Shown one piece after another: positions 2,782 through 64,000 of a stretch of 64,000 nucleotides of DNA. The notes under the pieces are model-generated. The model was given only the letters and a program-made list of their open reading frames with translations. It did not search any database and was not told the DNA's origin. How positions within the stretch are numbered: position 1 is the stretch's first letter; the number at the start of each line of letters is the position of its first letter. Source of the DNA: Psammoneis japonica (Eukaryota); contig QPGO01000076.1 in assembly GCA_008632985.1 (NCBI GenBank), forward strand, positions 310,001 to 374,000, in the 5' to 3' direction. The position numbers were made by a program, and so were the translations under genes.

Positions 2782-2966
2782 CGAGTAAATCTGGATGGAG
2801 GGCTATGTTATAATTTGGTGATTGGTTAAGATATATGGATCGAGTGGTGCTGCAGCGACACGCTCACAATCTAATCAGGTTTAGGTTCGCATTGACAGCG
2901 TCACTACTTTCTATTTAGACTTAAAAGGCATCGTGCTTGTTCTTTCGTTGCATCGAGATTTATTCG
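2782..2966 (+). repeat. 5' LTR (TpA retained)
   Basis: 185 bp, CGAGTAAATCT...AGATTTATTCG (11-bp terminal inverted repeat with 1 mismatch). Aligns to 9470-9652. Confidence 0.92.
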
Positions 2967-2969
2967 CTT

Positions 2970-2980
2970 TATCAGAGCCA
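2970..2980 (+). promoter_or_regulatory. Primer binding site complementary to the initiator tRNA-Met 3' region
   Basis: TATCAGAGCCA, 3 nt after the 5' LTR. Matches the canonical TGGTATCAGAGCCA PBS except for the first 3 nt. Confidence 0.65.
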
Positions 2981-3426
2981 AGACGAAAAAGACAGAGCGA
3001 AATGGTTTCGAATACAATTCGTCATGGACGATTGTTTGTTGTGTTGTTTGCATGGAACGTGCAGCTGCAGAAACGGCACTGAACTGTGCTCGATGCGTCA
3101 GAATTCGGATTGATGCGCACGATGATGCGTCTCGTGTCACTTGTTATAATGTCCACAAAAACAGCTTGCAATGGTAACACTCGCAAAGACAGTCACTATC
3201 CTCACATGTGCAACGGGTGTGAAGGGACTGCGGCATTGGGCGACATGCCCGAGCGTGTGCTCAACAATGTCGGTTGACATGAACGACACAGGACTGATCA
3301 CCCTGACGTCGGGTGGCTGTGTGAACCCGTTGTCACAACACAGAGAAAGTGCAGCCATCATGACCATGCAGACTCACAGCTGTGTGTTCCCGGTGCGGGA
3401 CCTTTGCACCCTTTCTCCATCACAGG

Positions 3427-4971
3427 ATGGCAGCAGCGGCAGCACCAGCAGCAGCACTTGCGGCGCTGGCCGCGGCAGCTGACGTTGACGCAGTTTCACA
3501 AGTTTGTGGTGTTGCTGACCAGAATGCAAGGGCGAGGTTGGTCTTCTATGAAGGGTTCACGACTTTGGAAAACATCGCAGTGATGGAGAGTGATCATGAT
3601 GTGGAAGATGTGGTGCAGAGGGCGTCTCGTCGCACGGTGGCCGACGGACGTGTGACTCTTGGGACTGTTCAGATCAAGAACTTGCAGGCGCTAGCATGGT
3701 GGTGCCAGGATTTGCTCAGACGGAATCAGCCATTGGTTGCGGCAGACTTTAATGCAGCAGCCACAGCTGCGGCCCGGAATGGCAGGCGCATCGAAAAGGA
3801 GCGCACGGATTCGGACGCGTCGGCAAGCGGTCTCGTAAAGTTCAAGCCCGATGACTTCGATGTGTGCGAAGATGCTTTCTTGAATCTCTTGGCACAGAAA
3901 TTTGGTGTGTTGAAAGAACCCCTTCGCCATGTTGTGAGGACAATTCCAGCTCCGGCTGCATTCACGGATGCTCAACAACAGCGCATGCACCAGATGCCAT
4001 TGAATGGCGCCGCATGTGACGAGGACAACCGCAGCGTTCACCGTGTGTTGAAGGAACACTTGGTCGACACGGCAGGATGGGCATGGATCAAACTGTTCAA
4101 CGTGACAGAAGACGGACGTGGAGCATTCAACGCATGGGTTGACCATTGCAATGGACAGGGCGAGTTGAGCAAGCGCATCCATCTGGCTGCGGCAACTGTT
4201 GAAACCTTGTTTTGTAAAAAGGAAGGATCGCTCCCGTTCGAAAAGTTCAATGAGAAACTTGCCAGTGCTTTCGCTGCTTTGAACAAATCACCGGATGACC
4301 ACAAATCTGAACGACAGAAAGTTGACATTCTTCTAAAAGGGATCCGAACGGATGACACTCGTCTCATTGCAGCAACGGCTGTCATTGGCAGTCAGCGCCC
4401 TCGTGACTTCACGGGGGCATGTGCTTGTTTCTCATCCGAAGTCTCTCGTTTGCATGCAGGTGCTCAGTTGGAAGCCCGGCGTCACTCGAAGCGCAAGATT
4501 TCTGAAATGAGCCGTGGTGGCAGTGGTGGCCGCGGTTTTTATCGAGGTCGCGGTCGCGGAGGAAGATTTGGACATGGGGGTGGACGCGGACGTGGTGGTG
4601 GCCGTCAAGGCAGAGGTGGCGACCACACTACGATGATCAATGGAGTCGATGCATCCGACCCTACAAGGAGCTTCAGTGCTCAAGAATGGGAAAAGTTGCA
4701 GCACAATGGGGGCATGAGCTGCGTGTTCCAAGCTCGCGAACGAATGGGTCATGGACGCGGTGGTGGCCGTGGGTCTCCCGCAGGTCAACAAGGACGCGAT
4801 GGGGGCGGCAGGCATGCAGCTGAAGCCCAAGTCTGTCAAGATGGCCAAGGCCAAACCCAACAACAGGATCAGGAGCAAAGGAGTGGCGGGCGTGGTCGCG
4901 GCGCTGACCGGGATCACGGTGGACGCAATGGACACGCCTTCGGTCGGGGAGCCTACAATGGTTCCACCTGA
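3427..4971 (+). CDS. gag: Copia gag-like protein (Tyr-depleted)
   Basis: ORF from ATG 3427 after the PBS, with a Gly/Arg (RGG)-rich C-terminus. Only 3 Tyr in ~514 aa. Confidence 0.8.
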   Translation: MAAAAAPAAALAALAAAADVDAVSQVCGVADQNARARLVFYEGFTTLENIAVMESDHDVEDVVQRASRRTVADGRVTLGTVQIKNLQALAWWCQDLLRRNQPLVAADFNAAATAAARNGRRIEKERTDSDASASGLVKFKPDDFDVCEDAFLNLLAQKFGVLKEPLRHVVRTIPAPAAFTDAQQQRMHQMPLNGAACDEDNRSVHRVLKEHLVDTAGWAWIKLFNVTEDGRGAFNAWVDHCNGQGELSKRIHLAAATVETLFCKKEGSLPFEKFNEKLASAFAALNKSPDDHKSERQKVDILLKGIRTDDTRLIAATAVIGSQRPRDFTGACACFSSEVSRLHAGAQLEARRHSKRKISEMSRGGSGGRGFYRGRGRGGRFGHGGGRGRGGGRQGRGGDHTTMINGVDASDPTRSFSAQEWEKLQHNGGMSCVFQARERMGHGRGGGRGSPAGQQGRDGGGRHAAEAQVCQDGQGQTQQQDQEQRSGGRGRGADRDHGGRNGHAFGRGAYNGST

Positions 4972-5051
4972 CTCCTTGGGGTGGCAACAGCTGCTGGAGC
5001 ATTGGCGCATTTGGCACACTTGTCGTTTTTGCTTGTGTTGCTCTTCTTGCT

Positions 5052-8000
5052 GTGTTGACCAAACCCCACCCAACATCTCGTTTCAAAGGAAAGGCGACAA
5101 AGAGGCACATTGCCGTGACATCAAAACGTGTGATCCGATCGACGAGTTCTGCACAGATGACAAATTTGATGACACCTGGGTTTGTCGCTCAAAATGAATG
5201 TGATGCTCACGCGGACACTTGTTGCGCTGGGGCGAACTGGAAGCTCATGGAGATGACAAATGAAGTGTGTGAGGTACATCCATTTCTGGACTCTTGTGAG
5301 CCGATCAAACAGATTCCTGTGGCACGTTGTTGCACCGCATGGACAGATCCGGAAACGACTCGTGAACATTTGCTGGTTGGTGATCAAATGCTCTGGTTTG
5401 GGACCGACATGGAACACTCACTTTTGAATCCTAACCAACTCCGTGCGTGCAACATGCCCGCACACGACAACCCTTGCGACACCCGAAACGGATTTGGCAT
5501 TGAAGCTGATGAAGCTTTCATCCCTTTCAACACCACGGGGACAATTGTGTCTTTCAAGTCTCGTGTTCCAGCGGATTGGGAAGTGCAGAACTTGCCGGTC
5601 ATGCTGTTGACAGGTGACGCATGGGATCCAGCACAGACAGACATGGGCTCACCGGAGCGCGCTAGAGAGCAGGCGGAGATGCGCACTGTTCGATCATTGG
5701 CCTCTGGCATGCGACAAGAACAGGTCTCGGAATTAAGGAGCGAGAAGGCAAAGTCCCAAGCAGCACGCTGGGGCGAGGTCGAAATGCAACTGTCGTCTGC
5801 ATCTCCCATCTGTCAACTTCAATCATTTTGCGACAGGCTTGTCAGCTCAGTGAACGTGGCTTGCACACATCGCGACGACGTGGACAAGAGGCAGAGGGCA
5901 GTCAAAGATTTGTGTGGCAAGGATCGGCACTCGAAGGTTGACGCTGAAGAGCTGGCCCGAAAATGGAATGTCGGTTTAGAAACGGCAAAAGACACTCTCA
6001 ATGTAACAACTCAGCGCGGTGTACAAACGGCGACCCAGCCGATGTCACGAAGAGTGAGGGTGGATCATCTTGACTTGCATCGGAAGCGTCTGAAAGGAAC
6101 ATGGTTTGTGGACACTTTGACATCCAAGGTGAAGTCTTTGCTCGGTGACACGTGTGCCAATGTTTGTGCTCAGGGCAAATTCGTGAAGGTTGCGCCGATG
6201 ACCGCCAGGTCGGAGGCAGGTTCATCTCTTGTTGAATTCACAGACGACATGGGTGCACCAGAACATCTTATGTCAGACGGGGCAGGAGAGTTCACTGGAA
6301 GGAGCACCGAATTTGTGAGACACGCACGATGTATGAGAATGCAATCAAGAACATCAGAGCAGGGTCGGAAGAACCAGAACCAGGCAGCGGAGCGTGAAAT
6401 TGGTTTCTCAGCCAAACGTTGGCGGCTGCGGATGACGAAGAAGAAGGCACCAAAGCGATTGTGGGATTTTGGTCTTGTTTGCGAGTCGGAATTAGTGTCA
6501 TGCATGGCAAGAGGCAGGGATGAGAGGACTGGATGTGAAGAGGTCACTGGGCAGACACCAGAGACAGGCAAGCATTTGGATTTTGGTTTCTGCGACATGG
6601 CATGGTGGTGGGACAGGCCCAACAAGCCGAGTGCAACTGACAATCCTCGAAGGCTTGGACGGTGGCTTGGTGTCTCACACAAAGTTGGCTCGGATGTGTG
6701 CCATTGGATTGTTGCGGAAAGCGGGAAGATTGTCTCCAAAACATCGGTCGAGCACGTGACACAGGCTGATGTGGTGCAACCGGACATTCGCGTCAAGGTC
6801 GACAACTTTAATGAGCAGCTGGAGAAGCAATTGGACGATGCCAACTTTGTCTTAAAAGGCGATGAAGCTGTGCCCACATTCGTGTTGGACGATCTTGCAA
6901 TTGACGGCAACCTTGGTGTGGAGTGTGAGGGCGGCATCACGCCAGAGGACGAAGAATGTGGCAACATGCCATCACCCGACGAGTGACCAGACGACGATGA
7001 CGAGCAGGCAATCGATCAACACCTGGGAATGGAACTCATGTTTGACATCGGAACCAACGGCGAGCGACGTGGTGTTGTGATGAAACATGCAAGAGGACAG
7101 GATGGGCGTCCAATTGGGACTCGGCAACAAAACCCATTGTTTGACACTCGCAAATGCGAAGTGGAACATGCCGACGGAACCACAGACAAGTGTGCAGCCA
7201 ATGTTGTTGCCGAGAACATGTTTGCTCAGGTCGACAGTGAGGGCAACCAGCATTCTATCTTGCATGAAATGCAGGACCACGAGAGGAGTGACGATGCGGT
7301 GTCGATTGCTGATGGCACCGTACGAACCGCTGACGGGAAGGAGAAGAAGAAGATCACAACAAAAGGATGGAAGTCATTGGTCGGATGGAAGGATGGCTGC
7401 TCATCTTGGGTCAAACTCAAAGATCTAAAGGACTCTAACCCCACTGAAGTTGCTGAGCATGCTGTTGCGAACAGGTTGACGGAAGAACCTGCTTTTGCTT
7501 GGTGGGTCACACATGTCCCACGCAAACGGAACCGCATCACATCCAAGGTCAAGAAGAAGTGCTGGTGCACGACTCACAAGTTTGGGGTCTGATTGCCCAA
7601 GTCCACGGAGGACGCTTTGCGGATTGATCAGGAAACGGGGACAGATTGTTGGGCTCGTGCAATCAACAAGGAGATGGCAAAGGCAAAGGTGGCATGGTGC
7701 GAGCACGAAGCTGAAACCCCTCAAGTGGTCCGGGAAGGCAAGAGTGCAACTTTGCGTGGTTGTCAGGAGATCAGGTGCCACATGGTGTTCGACATTAAAA
7801 TGGATTTCACCAGAAAGGCAAGGTTTGTAGCTGGCGGACACACGACAGAGGCCCCGGCATCGATCACTTGCTCCAGCGTGGTTTCCAGAGACAGTGTGCG
7901 ACTTGGATTCTTGTTGGCAGCCTTGAATGGCATCGATGTTGCGGCAATTGATCTGGAGAATGCTTGTCTCAATGCACCGTGCGCAGAAAAGACATGGTTT

Positions 8001-9305
8001 GAAGGCGGAAAGGAATGCGGCGAGTGTGAAGGAAAGGTGCTCATTGTCACTCGGGCGTCACATGGCTCAAAGAGCTCGGGATGCTCTTGGAGGTCTGCAC
8101 TGTCATCGGTCTTGCATGACTCAGGCTTCGAATCAACGAGAGCGGACCCAGATGTCCACTTGCGTGCGGCGACTCGTGAGGATGGGCACGAGTGTTGTGA
8201 AATGCTTTTGGTTTGTGTCGATGACACACCAATCATTTCCCATCAAGGGAAGTCCATTGTTGCTGCAGTGGGTGAACACTGTGCCATGAAGCCCGGCAGT
8301 GAAGGAGAACCAGAAGTTCATCTTGGAGCTAACATTGAGAAGGTTCAGACTCAGGATGGGCACACAATCTGGGCGAGTTCACCGAGGTCACATGTCAAAT
8401 CGGCGATTGAGACTGTGGAAGGCCTGTTGGATGAAGACGGCAATGGAGAGGTTCTGAAGAACAGTGCAAAGGATCCACCACCCCTGAAATGCAAACCGGA
8501 ACTGGACGTGACGGACGAGTTAGGTCCCGACTTGGTGGACAGGCATTTGCAGCTGACAGGGATTTGTCGTTGGGCGATCGAGTTGGGTCGCATCGACATC
8601 TTGCATGAGGTTTCAATCCCATCTCAACATCAAGCTAATCCAAGGAAAGGACATCTTGAGGCATTGCATCGTGCACTTGCGTGTGTGAAGAAACACCAGA
8701 ACGTCGGACGCATCGGATTTGATCCAAAGGAACCGGTGATTGATGAATCTGTTTTCAATTCAAACGCAGACTGGACCGAGTTTTACGGGGACGTCGAGGA
8801 GGAACTGCCGCCACGGGCACTGAAGCCTCGTGGCAATCCGGCGAACATCTGTGCATTTGTTGACGCTAACCATGCAGGGAATGTTGTCACTCGCAGGTCG
8901 CATGGCGGGATTCTGACATTCGTCAATGACGAGCCAGTGGTGTGGTTCAGCAAGCGGCAGAACATGGTGGAATCGGCAACGTTTGGAAGTGAATTGGTTG
9001 CAGTGCGGATTTGTAAGGAATTGATTGTTGCTTTGCATTGCAAGCTTCACATGTTTGGGGTTCCCCTTGAAGGACCGGCAAGTGTCTTTTGTGACAATCG
9101 CGGTGTTGTGAAGAACGCAAGTGTGCCCGAGTCGGTTTTGCACAAGAAGCACAATGCCATCAACTGCCATGTTGTGCGAGAAGCGGTCGCAGCGGGAATT
9201 GTTCGTGTTGGCAAGGAGGACACGGAAACGAACTTGGCCGATCTACTTACGAAGGTGGTTGCAGGAGAGCGGCGATGGAAGCTTTGCTCGTGCATTTTTT
9301 GGCAA
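5052..9305 (+). pseudogene. pol: Copia pol (protease, integrase, RT, RNase H) pseudogene
   Basis: Protease DAHADTCC. Integrase SDGAGEF...NQAAEREI. RT CHMVFDIKMDFTRKARFVAGGH and LVCVDD (YVDD motif, 8214-8225). RNase H FVDANHAG...ESATFGSEL...NLADLLTK. In-frame TGA stops at 6984-6986 and 7590-7592. Likely original stop TAA now reads CAA (9303-9305). Confidence 0.93.
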
Positions 9306-9469
9306 TGTCCCGACACCAAGGCCAGGCACCTGTGGCTCGTGTCCACGTGTCGTGGCCTCCCAAGCCAGCACATCTGGTGGTTTAATTTGGGTTCTTGTGG
9401 TTTGCCTCTCTGTGAGAGGATGTTGCATGTTTGGACGAATCGGCATTGCCATTGCCGTTTCGCGGGGAC

Positions 9470-9652
9470 TGAGTAAATCTGGATGGAGGGCTGTGTCATA
9501 ATTTGGTGATTGGTTGAGACACATGGATCGAGTGGTGCTGCAGCGACATGCTCACAATCTAATCAGGTTTGGGTTCGCATTGACAGCGTCACCACTTTCT
9601 GTTTAGACTTGAGGCATCGTGCTTGTTCTTTCATTGCATCGAGATTCATTCG
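9470..9652 (+). repeat. 3' LTR (TpA-mutated copy)
   Basis: Aligns end to end with 2782-2966, with 13 substitutions and one 2-bp indel. Confidence 0.92.
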
Positions 9653-9815
9653 GTGGATGTGTGATTCCCCAAATTTGTCGTTGCTGACCCTGTCGAATGA
9701 TCCTGCCTGCCACACAAACAGCAACCTGATGAACGTGCACATGCCAAAGGAATCATTGCATGAACATTCATCAGTGTGACAGACTGGTGGCTGTGATGCT
9801 GCTGCCATCAGAAGG

Positions 9816-9940
9816 CTGCTCACACCCAGGCAGGGAGAAAGTGACAATGCAGATTGTTTGGCACACAGGCAGAGCTGCGGCCCAAGCAACTCGACAGTCT
9901 GCTCACACCCGCTCAGGGAGAAAGTGACAACGCAGATTTG
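9816..9940 (+). repeat. Short direct duplication (~40 bp x2)
   Basis: CTGCTCACACCC..CAGGGAGAAAGTGACAA.GCAGATT at ~9816 and ~9899. Confidence 0.7.
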
Positions 9941-10374
9941 CGCAGAGCCCGTTGGTCTGCGGCATTTTCAGCACATGTTTTACATGCGCAATTTTCTGCA
10001 CACTTCACAACAGCACACCCTCTCCCCAAAGTTTGAAAAATGAGAGCGCGCGCTGTCATGACTCACATGGATCCTGCGTGTGGTCATGAATCTGCAAATC
10101 GACAACCGGCCATGGCAGCAAAAGACTTTGCCCTGTTGGCCGATGACAGCAGCTCAATGCATGGTGAAACCTGCCATCCTTCTGGTTGGTCAAGGTGGGG
10201 TTTTATTTGGGTGCAGCTTGAGTTTCGTGATTGCGAGTGTGCTGCCACGAATCTGCTGCATCCAGAATGCTGAGCTGCTGGTGTGTTGTTTTGTGTTGTG
10301 TGCACGCATGTCACAAACTTGCTTTTCTGCAGCATTGGCACAATCACGCACATCAGAGTTTTGCACCCAAAATC

Positions 10375-10680
10375 ATCACAAGTTGCCACAAACTGCACTG
10401 TTCAAACAAGGCATGCACAAAAAGAGGTTCATTGGTTTTTGGTGCATTCGCCAACAACACATCCATCTTCTCCAATTTCTACATCCAGATCCAGAAAGAC
10501 TGCAGGTGGTGCTTGTTGCTGCAGCTCTCAGAGTTGCACACATGAAAAGTTCTTTGCCACATGTGACACTCTTCAAAAAAGGCATGCACAGAAAGAGCTT
10601 CATTTGTTTTTGATGTGTTCACTTGTGTTGCACCCGTCTTCTCCAATTTCTGTGTCCAGATCCAGAAAGGCTGCAGAGCT
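10375..10680 (+). repeat. Diverged tandem duplication (~170-bp period)
   Basis: TTCAAA.AAGGCATGCACA.AAAGAG.TTCATT...TCTTCTCCAATTTCT...TCCAGATCCAGAAAG.CTGCAG at ~10401 and ~10572. Confidence 0.75.
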
Positions 10681-11039
10681 GAGAGTGGGAAGGCAACCCA
10701 TTGGAGGTTGCCTGAGTTGTTGGGCTCATTTTTAAAGACTTCCTAAGTCTCTCTGCTGTTTGTGGTCCATGCTCTAAACATGTCATCAATGAACCATCCA
10801 CAGCATGGGAGGTGCGGGGCAAATTCAGTCATTGCCACATGACTTTGTTGTTCACGCAGCGCCTTGTGCAGTGTGGCACACATGCAGGTGGTGCTTGTTC
10901 CCACAGCTGTTCCAGTGAGTGCATTGTGTGGCACTTAAAATGTTTTTTGCTTGCTCACATGCTTTCTTTCTGCATTTTCTTTGAGTTGCAGGGGAGGAGC
11001 TGGGTGCTTGACGTCTCACACCGCACACCGACACCCATG

Positions 11040-11420
11040 TTGCTCCGGAATCAGTGGCGCCAGATGCACTGATGCACCGGCAAGTGTGTGTTGCAGTTCA
11101 TGTCAGTGCATCTACATTGTGCTCTCACAATGTGCACTGTGCTTTTTGGCAATGAACAAGGTGGATCAGAGGAGCAACAGCACTTCTGCTGCAAACTCGC
11201 CTGCTCCAGAATCAGTGGCATTGGACACACTGACATGTCCATGTTGCCATTCCTGTGGGTTGTGTTGGTTGACACTCTCACAATGTGTTTTGCTCTTTTT
11301 GGCAACATGTGAGGTGGAACAGAGCAATGGCACTTCAAACACTAAAACAGCAGCTCCTGCTGCAAACACACCTGTTCCAGAATCAGCAGTGCCAGATGCA
11401 CCTGTCGACCTGTGTTTGTG
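11040..11420 (+). repeat. Diverged tandem repeat, ~165-bp unit, 2-3 copies
   Basis: TCC(G/A)GAATCAG...(C/G)AGA motif at ~11045, ~11205 and ~11376. CTCTCACAATGTG...TTTTTGGCAA...AGGTGGA repeated at ~11122 and ~11275. Confidence 0.65.
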
Positions 11421-13534
11421 AGTGTGAGCCTTGGTGGACCAAGGAGGGCAGTGATGCCATTTAACTCCCACGCCGGTGTCAACTGGAGTGCTGTTGGCAG
11501 CATCTCCACTTGGCTTGTTTTGTGTCTCTGGATGGCAAGCCTTGGGCATCATGGTGTTGTTTCCATCTGCGTTGTTTAAATTAAATGCAAACAACAAAAT
11601 AGAATGTGCACAATGCAAATGATTTTAAATTGCAGGTTTTGCAGGAATTGAGGGCGGGCACTCTCACAGGGAAAATGGTTGGCTGTTTCACAGCGAATGG
11701 TGTTGTCTCACAGGACAGCAGTGGGCTCCACAGCAATGAAGTTTGTGTCTTTCATGGTTGACAAAATGTCACCACACACACAACTGACAAGGTTTGAAGC
11801 CACAAAATTTTTAACTGTGACAGATTGAAAAATTCACTGCAAGAAAGTCAGTCTGATCACTGCGCTGCGCGCTCTGATGGACAATGCCCTGCTTTTGAAT
11901 GCAGCCAATGACATGTGGATTGCTTTCAATGCACAGCCCACATTTTGATTTTATTTCTTGCAAAAGTTGGCTGCAATCTTGATTGGTCTGTGGACGCTGC
12001 ACACACACGCTGAACAAATGAGAAATGAGTCCTGTGGACTTGGTGCAGCGAGAGACAGTTTTTTTTGTTTTTTTGGTTTCCAAAGATGTTTGTTTTTGTG
12101 TGTGGTCATCACTTTGGGGCAGTTTTCTTCTTGTTGAGAAAATGTTGTGCCCTGGCTGGAGCATGGGCAACTCACTTTTTTTTTAAACCTTTTCTTTGTG
12201 GCATTTTTTTGTGGCAGAGTTCAAGACAATTGTTGTGCATGTGACTGTGAACAACATCATGTGAGTCAACAAAGTTGTCATTGTTTTGTGGGTCACCTGG
12301 TGCTGGAGCGTGCCCCAGAAAGGTGCCATTCGCCAGCAACAGTGGTGTGCCAGAGCTCCCAGCAAATTTGAAGAAAGTTGGCCCAGAAACCACCCCAGAG
12401 AACACAAAGGAGAGATCACAGGCTGTTTTTAGAGCCAGCAGCAGCAGCAGCCGCAGCAGCTGACCCAGAAACATGCTCTCACCCCAGAAGCATGTGTGGT
12501 GAGCAATGAAGCACCGTGCACCACCTCTTCCAGAGCCCCCCTCCCACGGCATTCTTTTCGAGCGACGGCACCTTCTCTCAAATGCTGGTGCCTCCCATGC
12601 ACGTGTTTCAGCTGATTTCCAAACTTCAAAGCACCTGACCTCTACGGTGACATCTGCTCTAGAACATGACAAGCATGGAATACATGCAGTCTTGTTGGCA
12701 TCACTGTTCACAATAAAACTCTGCCACATGTTGTCCCAGCGGTGGATGCGATGCGAGAGATGTGGCGGCCGCCTGAACCCGACAAGGCCAGACGGATGAT
12801 TTTAGTCCAATTAATCAACTGAAATCGAATATGACGTCAGCTCGTGCTGAAAAACTTGGCGAGCGCAATTGATTCGTGATGTCCATTGTACAGAGCTCTC
12901 CTACTAGGACGCAACGGGCAAATGTGTCACTCACAGAAATCAAACAGCCCCAATACGAAGCTCGCGCTTTTCATCGCACTCTCCATCAACGCGGAAGCAA
13001 CACGACTTTTATTGTTCTCACTTCTCGTTCATCAGGCGCTTTGTGAAGGGAAGTCAGTGCTGACCGGTTGCTCTTTCGTCTGTGATTACACGGAAAGACA
13101 ATGGCGGTGCGAACGTTCGACACTGATACGGCGGGCCAGCGGGTAACGACGCTGGTGCTTTCTAAAAAGAATGTGTTGGATTAGGACGAGGAGTTTCTAC
13201 TTTTGATGCTCGTCGGGTGCGGCCCACCTACACAAATATCACGTTCTCCTCGTACGTCAATCGAGAATTGATCCAGAATCCTTGAGTCAGGACTGGGTTG
13301 AAAAACGACTTGCTCCCTCCCCCCCCCAAACTTTTGTGGCTCAGCGGACGCCTTACCAAACCTTTGTGTTTGGACCGTTAGAGATGGACGTCTCGACCTA
13401 TCTGTTCTTTACGTTTTTTCGTTCGTTTTGCCCTGTCGTCTACCCAAAAGAAACTCACAAACTCGTTGTCTCCTTGTATCTCTCAACAGATTGTCACGTA
13501 CGATGGTGGTGAAGAAGAAGCTCGTAGGCAGGCG

Positions 13535-14182
13535 ATGCTTTCGAAAATTCGGGAATTGCACTTTTGGATCAAGCTCGCATTCGCACGGATCAGTGTCGTG
13601 GAGGAATTGAAGGCTCGTTTGATGGAGCGGAAAAGAGTCAAGTCGACACGAAAGCGAGCGCTGGTACTTTTGAAAAACGCTGTCAAGAAACGGCTGATAT
13701 TCGATCGTAAGACTGACAAAAAGGCAATGAAGGATTACACGGGTGGTGGCTATAAGCAGATGAATTCCGCCTTGCGCTCTGGAAAGCTGAGTCCAGAAAT
13801 AAAAGCCCGTGTGGATGCCGTTATCAAGGCGATGGGCAAGTCGCGGAATTGTCCAGTGTTTCAAGGTACAGTCCACCGGGGCACCAACATTAGTGGAGCG
13901 CGTTTCAATTCGTTGTGTCCTGGAGCCACCTTCATGGACCCGGCTTTTTTGAGTACATCTCTGAGAAAGCATGTTGCTTGTAATAAATTCGGTATAAGCA
14001 AGAATGCACTATTCAAGATTGAAAGTCGATCGGGTGTGAACGTGACGAAACAATCCAAATTCAAGAGTGAGTCGGAAATTCTTTTTCGACCTGGTACTTT
14101 GTTTATGATCACGGCGGTTGAGGAACACGACGATCCCGTGTGTGGAAAGCGGAAGTTTGTTTCAATGCGAGAGATTCATTAA
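13535..14182 (+). CDS. R-S-E type mono-ADP-ribosyltransferase (VIP2/ART-like)
   Basis: Motifs YTGGGYKQMNSALR, VHRG (catalytic R), FLSTS (STS), ESEILF (ExE). First ATG at 13535. An in-frame acceptor (CAACAG, 13489) suggests an unresolved upstream exon. Confidence 0.85.
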   Translation: MLSKIRELHFWIKLAFARISVVEELKARLMERKRVKSTRKRALVLLKNAVKKRLIFDRKTDKKAMKDYTGGGYKQMNSALRSGKLSPEIKARVDAVIKAMGKSRNCPVFQGTVHRGTNISGARFNSLCPGATFMDPAFLSTSLRKHVACNKFGISKNALFKIESRSGVNVTKQSKFKSESEILFRPGTLFMITAVEEHDDPVCGKRKFVSMREIH

Positions 14183-17720: not shown

Positions 17721-19020
17721 GGAGAACAGAAATATTGATCCCGATGATATGACGAGCGAGAGAGAAAGAAGTTGATAGCGCCCACACAGTATAGCATTTG
17801 TATGTTCAACAATGCATTCACAGGTTGTAGAAGCGAAGTTGTACGTTGAGCGAAAGCGGTACGGTATGGAAGAGTCATTTTGTTACGAGCGCAAAGCCAT
17901 GAGTTCGGAACATAGCTCCAACTACTGCCTGGTTGAACGCTTTCCAAAGACGAAAATATTACATCCTTCAAGCGACGCCATCGTTGTCGTCATCAACAAT
18001 CAAAGGGGGAGCTCCACTGGTAATACCACGAGGATGGGATTCTGGAACGCGAGTTTTCAACTGCTTACATTCTTGTCTTTTTCGTCAGGAACAATCGGCG
18101 GTCCACGATCTTTCCTGATGCTGAATAGTACCATTTTTCAAAGCTGCTCAATCACAATGCCCTCGAAAAAGAATTCCAATCGAATCTTACCCAACGACCT
18201 CGATCTAGCAGACTCTTCCATTGCATTGTAATGAGACAGAAGAAAATCTTTCGTGCAATGGCACGTTCCCAGTGATTCCGCATAGCCTCCAAAACTGTCT
18301 TTACGCATTCGTCCTAGTGTGGATCGTCTGCAACCTCAACAAATTCACCCTTTCGCGGTAAACGAGGAACATGGATCATGCAAAAGGCAAAAGTCAAACT
18401 CTTTCACCGCGTCAACACATGGCTGTAGAAAAGAAACGTCTTCTCATCCCGGAAGTTCTCAACAGTCTGGTAGACGCATGGAAACATTTTTGCAGAACGA
18501 TTTACGGCAAACTGATCCGCTGGTACTGACTGTGACAAGAGGACAAGATCAAAAAGGAGATGATAGTAACGACCTTGTGACTCTCGACAGTCACAACCTA
18601 TAGTCAGCCTCAAGCTGCTCTCGTCCCTCATCCTGAAATCTAACAGGCAAGACCAGACCAGGGCGTGTCGCAGACAATTCTTCCTCCTCGAGGTGATCAA
18701 AGTCAGCAGTAGGTGGTGAATCAAAGCTGTATCCATGGGATGTAAGAGACGGCTGCGGAGAGTTGAACATGGTTAGGTTTGAGAGCGGACGTATGAATAG
18801 AGCACCGTCATTGTGAGCGATAAATTCCAAAATATCTTTTTCTGGCAGTATGACACTGTATCTTTGTGAGCTCGCTTGGCGGTTTGTTTGGGTGCGAAGT
18901 TGAACATGTGGTTTCAATAGAGGAATCTTTCGAAAATGACCCGTGACGTAAAAAGCATAAATTACTTATAGACGTCCGTAGAATCTACACGTTTTTGTAC
19001 CAAAACTGTTATCTTCTCAA

Positions 19021-19131
19021 AACTTTCGCAAAAAAGGACATTACTGCTAACTGATCAGGCGTATTTCTGCAAATATGTTGTTCTAAAATGCGCCTGATCA
19101 GTTTGCAGTAAAGTCCATTTTTCGCAAAGTT
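19021..19131. repeat. Foldback hairpin (~46-bp arms), MITE-like
   Basis: AACTTTCGCAAAAAAGGACATTACTGCTAACTGATCAGGCGTATTT (19021-19066) is the near reverse complement of 19086-19131. Confidence 0.85.
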
Positions 19132-19229
19132 AAAATTTACTAAGGACAGACAGACAGACTTTTCAATAATTATCTTGGTGCTGTTCTACACATTTCTACG
19201 TAAATGACTCTACGGCGCGAAAGATTGCT

Positions 19230-21465: not shown

Positions 21466-21496
<31 letters not shown>

Positions 21497-21800
21497 TTGC
21501 CGCACACTTTCAAAGTGCCAAGTGGCGTTGGTCCAACTTGGCTCGCTTGCCACAGCACGGTGCAGCAGTTTGTTGGTTGTTGCACTGCTGGAATGTTGCT
21601 GCTTTGCAGGCTTTTAGACTGGCTGTGATGCACTGCAACTGACCATCTCGAGCTAGACTCACAGCAGCAGGCAGATGTTGCACCCACAGCGCCCTTTTCT
21701 CCGGCTCCTAGCTAGCTGCTGTAGTGCACGGCAGCAGCAGAGAGAGCACCACTCTGTCCGCAGAGCGAGAGAGCGAGCCACACGCCACACGCATCCACAA
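19230..21800. other. TpA-depleted degenerate block
   Basis: TA near-absent, no intact ORF. Contains (CT)n tracts at ~21317 and ~21465. Confidence 0.6.
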
Positions 21801-22027
21801 TCCGCATCACTTCTGAACTCTGGCCCAGAAAGATCTTCTGTCGTAGAATTAATACTGACTTCTACGCACAAGTGCCATGTCAGCATTGTAATCGAAGTTC
21901 ACTTCATTCACGTTGCGTTGCACCCAACGGCCCAACAGCCAAGGCCTTATAAATCCTTGCCAACAGCCCAACGGAGAAAAAGAGGATACCATAGACTAGT
22001 GAAGAACGACTTCGACTGATACACACC

Positions 22028-22705
22028 ATGGCGGAAACAGATCCTCCTCCCGAGAAGAAGAGCAAAACGGAAGAAGAAGCACCTCTTCCTCAGGCTCCAG
22101 AGGATGAGTGGCCTGAAGCGTGGCTCATGACGGAAGGAGAAGTGACGAATCAAAAGGCTGAGAACCGTCGCGAACCCAACGTGCCCGTGGGTGTCAAGGA
22201 GATGCAAGCCTTGGGCATTCAGTACTGGAAGCTCGACGCGGATGCCTATGAGTATCCCGTCAAGGCTGTACCGTGGGATCCCAAGGACGCCCCGGACCCA
22301 AAGCTTGCCAAGCTCCGTGATGATCGGGGATACTCGTATGCGGATATCATTACGATTCACCCCGATCATTTGCCCGGGTTTGAAGAAAAGATCAAGGCGT
22401 TTTTCGAAGAGCATATCCACGATGCAGAAGAGATTCGTTACGTTCTTGGTGGCTCTGGGTACTTTGACGTGCGTGACTTTGAGGACAGGTGGGTCCGTGT
22501 TCACGTCAAGAAGGGAGATCTCATGACTCTCCCAGAGGGCATTTATCATCGTTTCACTTGTGATGATAAGGATATCATCCACGCTATGCGGCTCTTTATT
22601 GGGCACCCCGTATGGACACCCTTTAACCGTCCTGCCGAAGACCACCCGTCTCGTAAAAAGTATGTGGACGAGTACAACGTTGACATTGAAGAAAAGAAGG
22701 AGTAA
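22028..22705 (+). CDS. ADI1: Acireductone dioxygenase (ARD/ADI1, methionine salvage)
   Basis: Cupin motifs FFEEHIHDAEEIRY, GSGYFDVRD, GDLMTLPEGIYHRF, AMRLFIGHPVWTPFNRP. Confidence 0.95.
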   Translation: MAETDPPPEKKSKTEEEAPLPQAPEDEWPEAWLMTEGEVTNQKAENRREPNVPVGVKEMQALGIQYWKLDADAYEYPVKAVPWDPKDAPDPKLAKLRDDRGYSYADIITIHPDHLPGFEEKIKAFFEEHIHDAEEIRYVLGGSGYFDVRDFEDRWVRVHVKKGDLMTLPEGIYHRFTCDDKDIIHAMRLFIGHPVWTPFNRPAEDHPSRKKYVDEYNVDIEEKKE

Positions 22706-25185: not shown

Positions 25186-25216
25186 AGTTCCCCAGGGAAA
25201 TTAGCAGCTGTAAGAC

Positions 25217-56887: not shown

Positions 56888-57980
56888 GTGATGTTGCGAT
56901 CTGGATTGTTCGCAGAAAAATGTGAGCAAGCGATACCTTTTCAGTTGAAATTCAAAATATCGTTGTTAAGTACACATTTTATATGTACCGTATATTAGCA
57001 ATTTCTATTTCAATTTAATAAAGAATTAATAATTATATTAACGGTTGATAATCATACAGTCATGACCATTGATCCTCGCACCACTTTAGAGCGAGGATGG
57101 TTGCAGTAAACGACGAGGGATGGAGGCGGGGGCATCCCTCCTTCTTCCTTCTCAGTTGGTAAGCTCATGCACTTGGAAACCACATGCAGTGAGAAAGTGG
57201 TGCATACGTGTGAGTTCATGTTGGGAAATCCTCTCTCAGGTTTGTGGGGTGAGAAAAAAGTGGCGCAGAGCAGGAGACAGCAGCAAGAGCACACACACCA
57301 CCACCACCACAACAGGAGCACACTTCCAAAGTGTTGTGTGTGTGGGCAGTTGTGTCATCCAAGAAGTGCATCACAACCAACAAAATCTTTTTGGATGGTG
57401 GTGTGCACCACACCTTGCAGTGCTGCACAAAATGCCACCAAAAATTCTTGCCTTGTTGTTTGAAGTGCTCATCATCATTCCTTCATCTGACTCAGCCCAC
57501 TCTCTGTGGTCAAAATCCTTTGACAACTTGAGGCCCTGCCCTTTTGGCTTGGTCAGTCTTGCAAGGGACAATTGTGCTGGTGGCCTCACAGAGTCACATG
57601 GAGCAAAAGATCATGGGGGGAGGGGGGGGCGGGCAGGCTGCTCCTGGTTGTGGGAAGCGTTGGTCGTGGGGGGGAAGGAGGGCTCATCAACGGCCACCAC
57701 TGCTGCCGTGTGTGCTGCGGCATCCTGCAAAAAACACTTTCCTTCCAGTTTGTGATGCACTCTGGTCCCCCCCCCAACCCACTGACAGGGTGAATCCTTT
57801 GACGACATCGTGGGTGACTTGCTCCTCATGTGCCACAGAGCTTCTGTGTGTGTGTGTGTTGGAACCTTCCAGCAGTGCAGCAAAAGGCAGCATCTGCAGT
57901 GGCCAAAAATCCCCCCCCCCCCCTCTTTTCCCTCTTCTCTTTCTTCTTGTCTTTGTCAGCCTGTCTGTCTGCATGTCACG

Positions 57981-60900
57981 TGATGGACAGACTGGATGTG
58001 GATGATGGCTGGACCATTCAGACAGACGAGAGCAGATCTCTCTGAGATCTGCTTCTCACTTTCTCATCTGCTGGTGCTCGTGTCATCACAGTCCTGGCAC
58101 TTCAGGGAGTCTTTCATGCCTCTGTCACCATTGACCTTCGGCATTCTGTCAGGTCATGGCCGCGTGCTGTGCCACAGACCTGTGCGCCAAGCTTTCTGTT
58201 TCGATTCATTTCTTTTGTGAGCCGATCGAGCGAGCCTCATCGTCTGATCTGACAACTTTTTGTCTCGCTTTCCCGGCATTTTTCATGACCGTAGAAACAC
58301 ACCAGATTTCTGCGCGTGCATGACCAAAAATGGCTCCACCAACTAAAACCATGGTGTCTTCCGACCCCACAAAGCCCACTCTTCCGTCCATTGCAGAGAT
58401 CTGCTGTGAGTTCGAGGCACACACAACGATGCCACATCTACATGGCTGCCTGGGTGCGATTTGTGCGGACTCCACAACTGATCTCGACCCGTTCTTTGAC
58501 GATCCAGAGCGCGTGCAACCCAAGAAAGATTTTGCGGACATGCTTCGTGATCACTTCATCCACGAACGGAAAAGTTGCTCTTCAGAGCTCCCTCGTCCCT
58601 TGCAACCATGGATTCCGTCACTGTGTTGATGCATCCAATTGCATCATCCTCAACGATGGCACCCTTTTCATCATGAGCTTGACTCCTGACCAGAAAATGT
58701 TGTTCAGGGAACCTCCTGCATGTCACGACGACTCTCCCCCTGGGATGCGAGCATGGTGCCAAAATTTCCAACGTCATGCCTTTGATTCAGGATGCCACAT
58801 GCATCCATTGTGGTGTTTTGCTGAGGACCACGGTGGTGTGAAAGGTTTCGAGATCGGAAACGGCAAGGATGATGACTTGCCTCAATGCATGTGCGTCCAC
58901 TGCAAGGAAGCTGAGAGCTCTCTCCACAAAATCTCATCCAAGTCGGGTGTGTTCCCCAAGAACAGCAAATGTCATCGGATTGTTGCATCATGCTGCGGCA
59001 ATGGACACAAGGCTCTCAAGCAGATTGTCTGTGAGAATCATCCTGCTTTCGACCACGATGCTGCTGGACTGGTTGACTCCCATCCTGTCCAAGGCAATCG
59101 ATCATTGACAGACTGCCACATGATCTTCAATGATTTCCCACAGCTGCATGCCTGCATTTTTGATGCGGACTCTACGTTGAACGATCCACGGGAGATGACT
59201 GTCTTTGTCAAGAACACCAAGCACTCCAAGTTCTCATCTCGTGCCACCAGAGATGAGACGCGTTCCAGCCCTAGGTGGGAGCTCGTAGCACTGACGTGTG
59301 ACAACAATAATTTTTATCATCCGTCGTATGTTTCGTACGTAGATTTCTACGTGTGATATTTAAAAAAAAATTGTCCAGACTCGCTGTTTTGCGAAGCCCC
59401 AGACGTTTTATATAACAAATTTATAGAAACAATAATGCGCCAGTTACATTCTTCAATGTCTGAAGAATGTAACTGGCTAAGTAAAAAATGATGTACTTCA
59501 ATCATGTGCGAGTTTGTGCGTTCGCAAAATTGCCTCATTTTCTGTTGGCGATCATTGACATTTTAATTACCGTATAATTTTACTACGGAGCTCGCACGTA
59601 GAAGTCTGCGGGCCCAATGTCACACGGATTCCCACCTACGTCTGGAACGCGTCATGAACGGAAGTCTCCAGCTGTGCAGAAGAAGTGCACAGATGCACAG
59701 ATTGTCGAGACTCTCTCTGATTTCCTCTGCCAACCGGACAGTCCATCCTTTGCCACTCGTGCGACGCAATCCAATCCCCGCCGCACATGGAATCGAGCAG
59801 CTGAGGATGCGCGACGCACGGCTGTCAATGTCAGTGCTCTCCAGATCCCTGAGACATCTCTTCCTGAACCAGTCGATGACTCCACCACTGAAGACACTGG
59901 TGCGGAATCTCCACCTCTGGACACCTTTGATGCTTTTTGTGACGAATTGCATGAACTCGAGATCCCTTCTACGGACGAAGATCGACTTCTGCACCATGCA
60001 TGTTTGGCTTCAGTTTGCAAACTGAAAGTTGCTCCGAATGAAGCCTCCAAGAAACCATGTCTTGTCTGCTCCGGAGAGCATTTGTTTGATGACTGTCCGG
60101 CCCTGAAGAACAACCCACACATCAAGGGATTTCACATCCATTTTTGTCAATTCTTAAAGAGGGAAGCAGCTGTGCGTGCTTCTGAGTTCCAAGGATCCAA
60201 GGTCTGCTCCCACCTCATCATGAAAACCTGAAAATCCGCCCAGATCTGGTGCTCCGCCCTCGGATTTTCAATCGGGCCGTCGCAGCTAGTTTCGGATCTC
60301 CGACACTGCCCGTTTTTCTCCTCACCGAGACAAGACTGATGTCAGCGGGATGACCTTGAAAGAGGGACCAACCGTCTCGTCATCTGCCACTGAAGTGCCT
60401 CTTTCTTCACAGATTGACATGGATGCCACCCCTTCCACTGCCACGAAGGTGTCATTTGATGCCAGCAAGTTACCAGATGATGACCCTGCTCCCATGGAAG
60501 ACACCGTCGATGCTGCTTGTGCTCCGGATCCTTTGGAACAGGGGAGGGAAGACCCAGAAACACCGGATTTTGAGGAACACATTGACCTCACCTGCAATGA
60601 CATGGCTGTTGAAGATGGTTTTGCTGCCATCAATTCTGTTCGTGTCACTCCGATCGATCCACACCAAGCGAGTCACTCTCCTGAGCCGGAACTGTTGCGC
60701 TCAACTTGTTCTGTCAATGGGGCAAATTTTGCTCCGAATGAGTGTTGTGCTCAGTTGGATGCTGGTGCTGATGTTGCATGTGCAGCGACCGTGACCTTCT
60801 CCACCGACACCAAGAATTCACTCCGTCCCATCCCTGTCCCCTTGCTGTCAATCCGGCCCTTGGCCATCAAGCTGTCCCAGTTGGGTTCGGATGTCTTCGC

Positions 60901-63900
60901 ATCCCTGCAGAGAACTCTGATGGATGTGTTGAGGTTCGTGCCTGCTGCCACCCACAGATCCAATCTACGTTGGTTGATGAGCGACTCCTCCTTCGTCAAA
61001 ATGGCCCTCGTCGTGCAGACCACAATGTTGATTGTGTCCTCAAGTTCCATGATCTCGGCACCTGCAAGTTTGTTGCACGACACCGATTGCACAAGAATCA
61101 GGACATCATCATTCATGGGAAATTGATCAATGGCAAATGCTTTGCTCACCCTCTCATCCTCCCAGAATCTAATGATGAATTGGGTGCATCTGTTGAGCGC
61201 CTCAAGACCAGTGACCCTTCCTTTGCTGATGAGTGTGAAGCAGTCTCTGTGCACATGATTGAAACATGTGACACCTGCCAACATGACGCTCTTCGTGCTG
61301 AATGCAAGTTGATCCCCCGAGTGCATCAAGATGTTCCTTTTGAAGAGCATGCAGAGAAGAATGTCCCTGTCCAATCTCTCAAGGCTGACACGGAATGCCT
61401 TTCATGGCATCAGCGACTTGGTCATCCGAGTGATCACTGCCTTTGTCATGCCCATGAACACGGTGTCCCCAAGTTTGCCCACGGAACTTCTCCTCTCGAC
61501 ACTTGTCCCACATGCACACAAGCAAAGCAGACAAAGGAACCTGCTGGTCCGAACACTGCTCTTGCTGCCACCCAACCCTGCCAAGGTCTTGCGGTTGATT
61601 TTTCTTTCTCTGGCCTGCGGTCCAAGAACTCGGAGCGCACCAAAGACTGTGTTGGATTGAATGGCGAGACTTGTTGGATCACCATCTACGATCATAAAAC
61701 GAAGCATCTCCACCGTCCAAGGCAACCCCTCTGAATTGGCTTCGCCACTTTCTGGAAGAGCACTCACCAAAATGTCCAGACAAATGTGTGTTTGTGGATC
61801 AAGGAGGTGAATTGCATCAAAACCCAGAGGTTCGGTGACTTTTCGAGGATGACTTTCACCGCGCAATTTGTCCTGCGGGAAAAGATGCTTCAAACCAGAG
61901 GTGGCCCAGTGGAACGCAGTCATTTGACTGTTGCTGATGCCATCCGGGCGATGCTCATTGGTGCCAATTTGCCCACAAAATTCTGGCCCTGTGCTTTTCA
62001 TCATTTCACTCGAATCAACAACGCTGTGCCATCCCGCGGACAACCTGCTGCTCCGATTGCTCTTGCTGAGCTGGTCGAAAGGATGATTTCAAGAACTTTC
62101 GCATGTTTGGTTGCCAAGTGTGGGTGCGTGCGTCGAATCACCGCCCAGCAAAATTTCGGTCTGTCTCTTGCAAGGGTGTTTTCTTGGGCCATCTTCCAGA
62201 CACCACCAAGAACATCCTTTGGTGTGACACCGAGACGTCGCGTGTCAAGCTTGCCAAGCACATTCATCATGATGAGGGCATGAATGATCTACCCCACGAC
62301 TCTCTTCCCCTGAATGTGGTTCACTTGGAGCATGCTCAAGATGGCAAGGCTTCACCTGCCAAGACTGAAGAATCTACGATGGACGAGCTCCACTTTCATG
62401 GGAATCCTTTTGCCAAGACCATTGCGCATACGATGAAGGGGCCGTTTGCTGATCCGACATTTGGAATTTCATTGACTGCGGATGATCTCCATCAGCAAGT
62501 GTTTGTCTCTGATGTCAAGCATGGTTCTCCTGCTGCGCGTCTTTTCTGTTCTTTGAAGGCAACCTGCAACAAGATCAAGGGTGCGTGTGTCGCATTGATT
62601 GATGATCACCCTGTCTTTGTGGCAGAGGAGGCCATCAAACGTTTTCGACAAGTCTGTGATTCTGGCAAGACTCACTTTGAAATCGAGTTTGCGCCGGAAC
62701 GTCAACTGGACTCCCAGGCTCTACAACGTGCCCTGATGGAACACAATGTCTGTGCACCGACTCCTGACCCTGATGACGAACATGTCCCGGAAATTGCCAA
62801 TGCTGACATGCATGCTGTTGCTGCCATCCGTCACCCTGATGTTGATTTTTCCGATGTGGACGATGATGACATCCCTCCGTTGATCCATGTCGACTGCGAC
62901 AATGGTGTGGTCAACATCTGCACCATTTCATCTCATGCCATTGCTCCGGAGGAACAAGCGTCAGGTGCTTTCACTCGCCATTGTCTCAAGAAGCTGGGCA
63001 CCTGGCCCGAATGGCATGTGGGTGAATTCAAACAACTTGACCAATTCCATGAGTTGGGGATGTTTGGTGCACCGATTGAATGTCCAAAGGATGCCACAGT
63101 CCTTTGTCCACATTGGCAACATGATCTCAAGCATGATGGCACGCGACGATCTTGACAATGCTGCGATGGATCTCCTTGTGCTGCGTCAATCCTCCATTGT
63201 CTTCACTCAACCCACTCCTCTTGTGTGGAACAACCTGTCCAACGCATGTTTTTTGCCCTTGCTGCGACTGTGAGCTACCCTGTGTTTGGTGGTGATGCTC
63301 ATGATGCCTGTGCACACTCTCCACGACCGTCACACCCCGTCTGTGTTGCTGTTGACGAAGCATGCGCGACTTGGCACAAGGCTCGGTTTGGCATTGATTT
63401 GGATGGGACCATGGTGCTTCCGATGCAACATGCACTTCAGGGACACCCAGAAGCCAGCGTGCTCTGGGAGATGCACATCAACGGCATTTTGTCGATGTGA
63501 ATCCACTTTTTCGCAACACCGCTCATGACAAATGCATCTGTTCTGCTGCTTTTGAGGGACACAAGATCTTGCTCCTCCATCAGGTTGATGACTTCTCCCT
63601 TGCGTGTCCTGAAGAGTCCCTTGCGATCAAGACACACGACAAGATTGGCAAAGCTCTTGAATTGGAATCGGAAACCTCCCTGCCTTTCAAGTGTCTTGGC
63701 GTGATTGAAGAGTTCAATGGTGTGGATGTTCATCAACATGATGACTCTGTTGGCATTGCTGTTCACAGCCATGTTGATCGGGTTTGCACCTCGCATGGAT
63801 GGTCGACACCGACGGAAGAGGAACTCGACGATGACTGCAAGGCTGCGCCAATCCCGGTTGACTCTTTCGTGAACTGTGCACTGCTGTTGGTCCAGCTGAA

Positions 63901-64000
63901 GGAACCCCGGAACATGCAGAGTTACAACAAGCTGCTGGTTTTGGGTGCCGCACTCCACTTGGTGAATTGTTGTGTGCGCATGTTGTCTGTCGATTGGATG
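57981..64000 (+). mobile_element. Second degenerate Ty1/copia retrotransposon, running off the window end
   Basis: Putative 5' LTR at 57981-58151 (TG...CA) followed by PBS-like GGTCATGGCC. gag ~58330-60230 with a C..C...H...C knuckle. Protease QLDAGA, pre-integrase WHQRLGHP, integrase, RT EFKQLDQF...QVDDF. Multiple stops and frameshifts. TpA-depleted. Confidence 0.88.
59257..59653. mobile_element. 397-bp MITE with 24-bp TIRs and ATGA target-site duplication, nested in gag
   Basis: GACGCGTTCCAG(CC/AC)(C/G)TAGGTGGGA-type TIRs, 22 of 24 matching. ATGA at 59253-59256 and 59654-59657. Excision restores gag TRDERKSPAVQKK. Confidence 0.9.

Follow-up and report, generated by a model that had tools for sequence, protein, structure and literature searches.

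What has removed nearly all TpA dinucleotides from about half of a stretch of diatom chromosome, when did it act, and at which sites? The question is raised by 64,000 nucleotides of the Psammoneis japonica genome (NCBI GenBank assembly GCA_008632985.1, contig QPGO01000076.1, positions 310,001 to 374,000 of the forward strand), called the window below, in which TpA-poor blocks carrying Copia retrotransposons lie between host genes. Judging from its sequence, the window is diatom nuclear DNA; its long intron-poor open reading frames (ORFs) include a Tic110-like protein and an enolase, and the best matches of the enolase are diatom sequences (84-92% identity).

A first reading of the letters alone (the sequence-only reading) had described five TA-poor blocks making up about half of the window. 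We defined the blocks from dinucleotide counts per kb and a position map of every TpA in the 64 kb. The same five blocks emerged, with coordinates that agree to within a few hundred bases, and they total about 30.6 of the 64 kb. Their features are as follows, with the observed/expected ratio of a dinucleotide given as o/e and long terminal repeat abbreviated as LTR.

About 3200 to 12790, no strand: block 1, TA o/e 0.05-0.11; body of Copia element 1, its 3' LTR and an older repeat stretch
19340 to 21615, no strand: block 2, TA o/e 0.04, CG o/e 0.36; high-copy repeat family in its left part
25326 to 34486, no strand: block 3, the most extreme, TA o/e 0.03-0.05, CG o/e 0.16-0.20; at single-copy word depth
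39700 to 42876, no strand: block 4, TA o/e 0.08, CG o/e 0.5
57206 to 64000: block 5, made up of the next three lines
57206 to 59172, no strand: block 5a, TA o/e 0.03; no Pfam family
59257 to 59653, no strand: 397-bp TA-rich element inside block 5, with 24-nt terminal inverted repeats and 29 TpA
59654 to 64000, plus strand: block 5b with Copia element 2 (PF13976, PF25597; tblastn matches to P0241-P0288)

The blocks are 2.3-9.6 kb in size and have a TA o/e of 0.03-0.11, against 0.59 in the DNA between them. Pooled, they (30,566 bp) contain 136 TA (o/e 0.07), 940 CG (0.49), 3343 TG (1.67) and 3072 CA (1.69), while the gene-bearing remainder (33,434 bp) contains 1390 TA (0.59), 1800 CG (0.99), 2423 TG (1.19) and 2402 CA (1.13). 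The longest run free of TpA is 1484 bp (28439-29923), which at the TpA density of the remainder (0.0416 per base) would occur by chance with a probability of about e^-62. The loss is limited to these domains, and their borders are sharp, within tens of bases: TpA is dense up to position 25325, and the next one is at 25812. The proteins encoded differ accordingly. ORFs between the blocks (n = 14, 5365 residues) have 3.15% Tyr, 1.85% Cys and 2.27% His, against 0.32%, 4.25% and 4.76% in ORFs within the blocks (n = 9, 3719 residues), so that the host genes have normal TA and Tyr, as had been said of them from the letters alone. With no TAA or TAG stops left, about 31 kb of block DNA has 80 open frames of at least 110 codons, on both strands. 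Gene finders are likely to call false proteins there, which may enter gene sets and protein databases, and such blocks also distort LTR-based dating and analyses of GC content.

The depletion is present in sequencing reads as well as in the assembly. A public DNA run (X1) contains 94% of the words sampled from 25300-35200, and its contigs (word depth about 55-65) span 25100-35845 as three pieces that together depart from the window at 16 letters. Since these contigs reproduce block 3, its TA-free state is not just a product of the assembly consensus, and a consensus artefact, which the sequence-only reading had named as a possible refutation, is unlikely. Among 14 listed differences between the window and X1 in 25100-32758, 3 are sites at which the window retains a TA and the run has TG or CA, 5 are CpG transitions, 4 are other changes, and 2 adjacent ones form a single TG-versus-CA double difference. 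Given the surviving TA sites that differ in this way, the process was likely recent.

TpA was lost after integration, on both strands

Copia element 1 in block 1 provides both the direction and the timing of the change. Its parts are the following.

2783 to 2966, plus strand: 5' LTR of Copia element 1, spared; self-BLAST pair with 9471-9652 (92.4% over 184); 14 TpA
3364 to 4971, plus strand: gag-like ORF; tblastn matches to the N-terminal parts of P0141 (6e-57) and P0142 (1e-50); no Pfam family matched
5052 to 9302, plus strand: pol frame; tblastn match to residues 1-1418 of P0121 in one high-scoring segment pair, 62.5% identity
9471 to 9652, plus strand: 3' LTR, the self-BLAST partner of the 5' LTR; keeps 4 TpA

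With an LTR pair around gag and pol, the domain PF07727 and a full-length pol match to P0121, element 1 is a Ty1/Copia LTR retrotransposon. The two LTRs of one retroelement insertion are identical at integration. Between those of element 1 there are now 12 substitutions and a 2-bp indel, and 10 of the 12 substitutions are a TA in the 5' LTR that is TG (5) or CA (5) in the 3' LTR. The remaining two are CpG transitions, about 140 other positions are unchanged, and there are no transversions. Thus, 10 of 14 TpA have changed in this pair against 2 of 9 CpG, and since the copies were once identical, TpA was lost in chromosomal DNA after integration.

The loss of TpA is independent of the loss of CpG. 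In the body of element 1, TA o/e is about 0.1 while CG o/e is 0.82-0.89. The TpA density drops just beyond the 5' LTR, and block 1 continues through the 3' LTR into older, CpG-poor repeat DNA (9653-12790, CG o/e 0.24-0.44), in which no Pfam family was matched. In the pol gene, one frame interrupted by TGA at 6984 and 7590, a single Tyr occurs among 1417 codons, while five of the relatives have 39-46 Tyr. Both stops stand at columns where Arg is the commonest residue of the relatives, and thus they originated in CpG decay.

The direction of change that the sequence-only reading had taken from retroelement motifs, from Tyr to Cys or His, holds in a larger comparison as well as in the LTR pair, which proves it independently. 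We compared each Copia element with 40-48 relatives and counted a column as conserved when at least 80% of them have Tyr. The second element, in block 5b, has gag-pol matches from 60754, continues past the end of the window and is unrelated to element 1. At 25 conserved Tyr columns of element 1 (40 relatives) the window has Cys 17 times, His 7 times and Tyr once; at 19 such columns of element 2 it has Cys 10, His 7, Phe 1, Arg 1 and no Tyr. Pooled, 41 of the 44 columns are Cys (27) or His (14), one is Tyr and two are other residues. Among related metagenome Copia loci, 76 of 79 have a TA o/e of 0.54-0.92, and none of the 120 listed Copia relatives is free of Tyr (lowest 1.7%). Compared with these sequences, the Copia family is evidently not natively TA-poor, and its TpA was lost secondarily.

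The change is specific to TpA. At the second codon position, 27 of the 44 Tyr (TAY) columns show A to G, against 6 of the 294 columns for His, Asn, Asp, Lys, Glu or Gln, in which C, A or G precedes the A (Y stands for a pyrimidine and R for a purine). T to C at this position precedes an A in 21 of 22 cases (ATA to ACA 8, TTA to TCA 6, CTA to CCA 4, GTA to GCA 3). An A that follows another A is spared, with Lys to Arg and Asn to Ser at 3 of 91 conserved AAR and AAY columns against changes at 41 of 44 TAY columns.

Flanking bases modulate the loss. The TpA that survive in the blocks are mostly YTAR (TTAA 22, CTAA 17, CTAG 16, TTAG 13), while ATAT, GTAT and ATAC survive 0, 1 and 3 times and number 110, 94 and 87 in the remainder of the window. 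With that remainder as a proxy for the starting state, the estimated survival of TpA is about 3% for RTAY, 8% for sites that fit on one side and 29% for YTAR, which fits two independent strand-wise rates. The products are enriched in the same contexts: TGC 1.94-fold, TGT 1.57-fold, TGG 1.45-fold and TGA 1.17-fold on the TG side, and GCA 1.79-fold, ACA 1.34-fold, CCA 1.27-fold and TCA 1.21-fold on the CA side. Tyr became Cys twice as often as His, and a purine precedes 10 of 14 His outcomes against 12 of 27 Cys outcomes. Read from these counts, the per-strand rule is TAY to TGY, apparently with TAC first, RTAY sites being the worst affected and YTAR sites the least.

Both strands were changed in many separate events. 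Along the two elements, the Cys and His outcomes form 13 and 15 runs, where 12.8 and 13.6 would be expected, and are thus interleaved as by chance. We therefore rejected strand-coherent (processive) conversion as a candidate; a single processive sweep would not give this order.

The affected DNA includes sequences that are not transposons, and the process is domain-wide and not transposon-specific. The two that could be assigned are these.

31461 to 33221, minus strand: glycosyltransferase-61-like (GT61-like) pseudogene in block 3 (PF04577, E 8.7e-12), with two in-frame stops
40148 to 40555, minus strand: zf-MYND (MYND-finger) ORF in block 4 (PF01753, E 4.7e-6)

The GT61-like pseudogene has 0.3% Tyr, while 8 relatives have 2.0-4.9%, and at 5 Tyr-majority columns it has Cys twice and His, Phe and Tyr once each.

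Relation to Bigelowiella natans and to known mutational systems

The author of the sequence-only reading knew of no published description of such a pattern. This has been overtaken by Mettrop et al. (bioRxiv 10.64898/2026.01.13.699255, 2026), whose main text describes the same signature, hypermutation of A:T to G:C at TpA only, in integrated viral DNA of the chlorarachniophyte Bigelowiella natans. According to that text, 231 of 302 mutations in mutation-accumulation lines fell in two integrated viral regions, and all but one of the 231 were A to G or T to C, these all at TpA. The rate was about 6e-7 per site per generation, the de novo rate of this type was about 1000-fold above background, and the mutations were confined to some of the lines. 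The B. natans genome contains 124 clusters of windows that are poor in TpA and rich in CpA and TpG, and its low-TpA coding sequences are enriched in reverse-transcriptase and DDE domains. An ADAT2 homologue was proposed there as a candidate, an adenine deaminase being unproven. The main text makes no mention of diatoms, and term searches of it for flanking context and for LTRs were negative.

The window and B. natans, as the main text describes it, share a near-pure change of A to G or T to C at TpA that gives TpG or CpA on either strand. They also share its confinement to kb-scale regions of foreign or mobile DNA with normal neighbours (silent in B. natans and presumably so in the window), and a long-term depletion of TpA with a gain of CpA and TpG. 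However, B. natans is a rhizarian and the host here is a diatom, a stramenopile. The targets in B. natans are a giant-virus/virophage insert, while those in the window are Copia LTR retrotransposons and a host-type pseudogene. The depletion here is near saturation (o/e 0.03-0.11), compared with a Rho of 0.45 for the nucleocytoplasmic large DNA virus (NCLDV) insert of B. natans. Moreover, the predominance of RTAY over YTAR and the proof from an LTR pair that the process acts after integration are seen here, and neither came up in the term searches of the B. natans main text. Conversely, B. natans has a de novo rate from mutation-accumulation lines, and the window is known from its footprint alone. 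What the window shows is thus a long-term footprint of this signature in another lineage, far from that of B. natans, near saturation and on retrotransposons, and by analogy the shared pattern suggests a common DNA-editing defence. Searches of full-text literature on diatoms, transposons, TpA, hypermutation and repeat-induced point mutation (RIP), with subscription journals outside the coverage, gave no report of the pattern for diatoms. Term searches of two diatom transposon and genome papers (PMC2806351 and PMC8147415) did not find it either.

Like fungal RIP, the process in the window is a dinucleotide-specific transition hypermutation at the DNA level that inactivates transposons permanently and leaves compositional blocks. 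Fungal RIP, however, turns CpA into TpA and enriches TpA. Here, the direction is opposite: TpA is destroyed (o/e 0.07), TG and CA reach 1.67 and 1.69, and the GC content rises. Furthermore, duplicates are mutated together in RIP and not in the window, where the 5' LTR keeps 14 TpA and its 3' twin 4. Decay by deamination of 5-methylcytosine (5mC) co-occurs in the older blocks (CG o/e 0.16-0.5); it gave the two TGA stops of element 1 and also feeds TpG and CpA. Unlike the process at TpA, 5mC decay does not remove TpA, and CpG decay is here a second and slower process (2 of 9 CpG against 10 of 14 TpA in the LTR pair). The sequence-only reading had set aside both RIP and 5mC decay as explanations, and the opposite dinucleotide shift and the TpA loss with CpG nearly intact bear this out. 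The pattern also resembles the work of AID/APOBEC, ADAR/ADAT and engineered TadA adenine base editors in being a context-dependent transition hypermutation directed against foreign nucleic acids. AID and APOBEC enzymes give C to T, and ADAR and ADAT act on RNA. We know of no natural eukaryotic enzyme established as deaminating adenine in chromosomal DNA at this scale.

Proposed process and rival explanations

The explanation that we prefer, and consider quite probable, is a transition process restricted to TpA that acts after integration on silent, repeat-rich diatom DNA, presumably as a deaminase-based defence. The blocks would be silent, repeat-rich stretches of a nuclear chromosome that hold the two Copia elements and older repeats, together with one or more decayed genes of host type. 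Once integrated, this DNA underwent an intense change of A:T to G:C, almost only at TpA and on either strand, so that TA ends as TG or CA. About 90-97% of TpA have been converted in this way, well ahead of CpG decay and background substitution, with TAY (RTA on the opposite strand) fastest, TAC first and YTAR slowest, and the process would halt sharply at the borders with expressed genes. The inactivation that results would be irreversible, with changes in all Tyr codons and in many of those for Ile, Leu and Val. As to chemistry, a TadA/ADAT-like or other deaminase with a requirement for a 5' T would turn adenine into hypoxanthine, a base read as G. Such an enzyme may be directed to silent chromatin, perhaps in bursts, and may serve genome defence of the same kind as in B. 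natans. A TA-preferring adenine deaminase, already put forward in the sequence-only reading, would still be the most economical chemistry, as it gives pure A:T to G:C change with a need for 5' T. tRNA adenosine deaminases target A34, which always follows U33, and bacterial TadA works in a UAC context; these preferences resemble the TAY preference seen in the window.

Several points weigh against this explanation. The deaminase step and the targeting to chromatin are inferences, and because TpA is palindromic, an attacked A cannot be told from an attacked T in the sequence alone. The pattern was read in one 64-kb window of this species, which offers a single LTR pair for comparison. The context statistics use the host genes of the window as a stand-in for the ancestral repeat composition. 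X1 may be the assembly's own sample, in which case it excludes a consensus error and is not an independent individual. Finally, the TA-rich 397-bp element is unmutated within the block 5 domain. Its terminal repeats are complementary at 22 of 24 positions (92%), it contains a perfect 17-nt hairpin (59439-59477), and it is probably a young insertion similar to a miniature inverted-repeat transposable element (MITE). That this element was spared suggests activity in bursts or in the past, unless lying within the domain is by itself not enough for DNA to be mutated.

The same products could be left by an attack on thymine, an alternative that we regard as unlikely though worth keeping in mind. 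The T of TpA would be modified, for instance by TET/JBP-type oxidation to 5-hydroxymethyluracil (5hmU) or a derivative, and mispairing or faulty repair would turn it into C. T to C on either strand yields identical TG and CA products and the same RTA/TAY context, and dinoflagellate DNA has 5hmU preferentially at TpA and TpC. However, 5hmU forms a good pair with A, near-pure T to C change is not among its known effects, and we know of no report of this base in diatoms. Error-prone patch repair of the Pol-eta type (WA to WG, where W is A or T), triggered by 5mC deamination mismatches in methylated repeats, had been offered in the sequence-only reading as the second candidate. In its favour, several blocks are CpG-depleted (CG o/e 0.16-0.5), as expected of methylated DNA, and the depletions of TA and CG are correlated within the blocks (Spearman 0.69, n = 27), which is also as expected if both grow with age. 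AA and TA are both hotspots in the Pol-eta signature, however, and here AA changed to AG at 3 of 91 columns while TA changed to TG or CA at 41 of 44. Element 1 has lost nearly all TpA (o/e about 0.1) with CpG almost intact (0.82-0.89), and its LTRs changed at 10 of 14 TpA against 2 of 9 CpG with zero transversions. With AA barely changed and TpA loss far outrunning CpG loss, the idea fits poorly, and we consider it very improbable.

Two further rivals concern where and when the mutations arose. The copies might have arrived mutated, by A-to-I editing of RNA (ADAR- or ADAT-like) or by editing of cDNA before integration. Two blocks do contain LTR retrotransposons, and RNA adenosine deaminases favour a 5' U, but the LTRs of one insertion differ by 10 TA changes, both strands are affected with interleaved outcomes, and TA/TG differences exist between the window and the DNA run at the same locus. 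The blocks also include a non-retroelement pseudogene and unassigned DNA and cross element borders, and editing before integration thus has hardly any likelihood. Whatever the chemistry, the target could be repeat homology, as in fungal RIP, instead of a chromatin-defined domain. The identifiable content of the blocks is mostly transposon-derived, part of block 2 is high-copy (depth 1000-2400), and according to PMC9998398 a relative of the RIP factor RID, DNMT4, is encoded in many diatoms. Against this, the equally repeated LTRs of element 1 are unequally affected (0 versus 10 of 14 TpA), block 3 is now at single-copy depth, and the main B. natans target is single-copy in the main text of Mettrop et al. 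(10.64898/2026.01.13.699255); we take targeting by repeat homology to be rather unlikely. For an artefact of sequencing, base calling or polishing at modified bases, or a native TA-poor composition of the elements, we found no supporting point. Block 3 stands in X1 contigs too (word depth about 60), which depart from the window at 16 letters over about 10.7 kb. A native composition is contradicted by the related Copia loci with normal TpA (76 of 79), by the conversion inside one insertion seen in the LTR pair, and by the 39-46 Tyr of five relatives against 1 in the window copy. This last rival is barely credible.

If the process restricted to TpA is the same in diatoms and Bigelowiella, the killing of integrated DNA by editing would be widespread in eukaryotes. 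It is possible, and we propose it only tentatively, that diatoms and chlorarachniophytes share an old programmable TpA mutator that works best at RTAY, is aimed at silent chromatin and not at repeats as such, and reaches saturation in diatoms. Such a mutator would erase Tyr codons and two of the three stops from transposons, pseudogenes and any other DNA in its domain. It would be a natural editor of chromosomal adenine (or thymine) and a third mutational genome defence beside RIP and APOBEC. The base-editing field would have an interest in a natural enzyme that makes this A:T to G:C conversion in chromosomes. Transformation and CRISPR tools exist for some diatoms, and a hunt for the enzyme would be practical if a tractable species has the footprint.

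Other features of the window and related loci

The remaining features are listed here.

118 to 2730, minus strand: host gene for a beta-propeller domain protein (PF09826, E 6.9e-101), an ATG-started ORF with TA o/e 0.55-0.67
10383 to 10676, plus strand: old tandem duplication of 123-nt units that are 77% alike, from self-BLAST and alignment
33966 to 34133, minus strand: Copia pol remnant at the right end of block 3; tblastn matches to the C-termini of P0241, P0242 and P0244 (E 1e-7 to 8e-7)

Element 1 lies upstream of the beta-propeller gene, 53 bp from the first ATG, and the spared 5' LTR of the element may now be part of the promoter region of this gene. Sparing of the 5' LTR as a general rule was considered and dropped, as the TA-normal island in block 5 is the 397-bp inverted-repeat element and not an LTR. 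We also dropped a match to a Copia primer-binding motif next to the 5' LTR (2967-2978, 3 mismatches), since such matches occur at chance level (43 found, 50 expected). In the tandem duplication, the two copies differ by CA-versus-TG tracts, with 4 CA/TG and 3 AC/GT adjacent double differences. About 600 bp to the right of block 1, an ORF on the plus strand (13382-14182) has the ADP-ribosyltransferase domains PF03496 (E 1.5e-12) and PF01129 (E 2e-11).

A Pfam search of 75 ORFs from the blocks gave nothing beyond the GT61, the zf-MYND and two Copia domains. When 25330-31461 and 33200-34330 were read through in six frames, with X in place of stops, no Pfam family was found. The stretches 19000-20991 and 24976-25639 belong to a high-copy repeat family: their word depth in X1 is 1000-2400, where single-copy DNA has about 55-65, and they are matched by hundreds of diverged X1 contigs. 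Over 19000-38900, variant places show A>G (62) and T>C (46) in excess of G>A (36) and C>T (28). The two products are not evenly distributed: TG exceeds CA (470 versus 368) where the elements read on the plus strand, and CA exceeds TG (245 versus 198) where they read on the minus strand (the regions considered are 32441-34476 and 59732-64000). This mild asymmetry may come from codon context (TAY) or from a bias of the transcribed strand.

A second run, X2, has contigs that skip 23140-23240 and 36087-36205, with ends GT..AG and, on the minus strand, CT..AC. The skipped stretches, 101 and 119 nt long, are probably introns of host genes, and the run probably represents an RNA library. Its spliced contigs lie over host genes, and most TA-free bins of 19000-38900 are uncovered by it; we did not use it as evidence.

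Partial depletion of TpA (TA o/e 0.25-0.30) also occurs outside this genome, in L077, L028 and L066, which are short metagenome contigs from a single Copia family. Where these differ from each other, CA/TG is the commonest adjacent double difference (7 of 24, 16 of 71 and 14 of 61), and the TpA process is probably at work in other organisms too.

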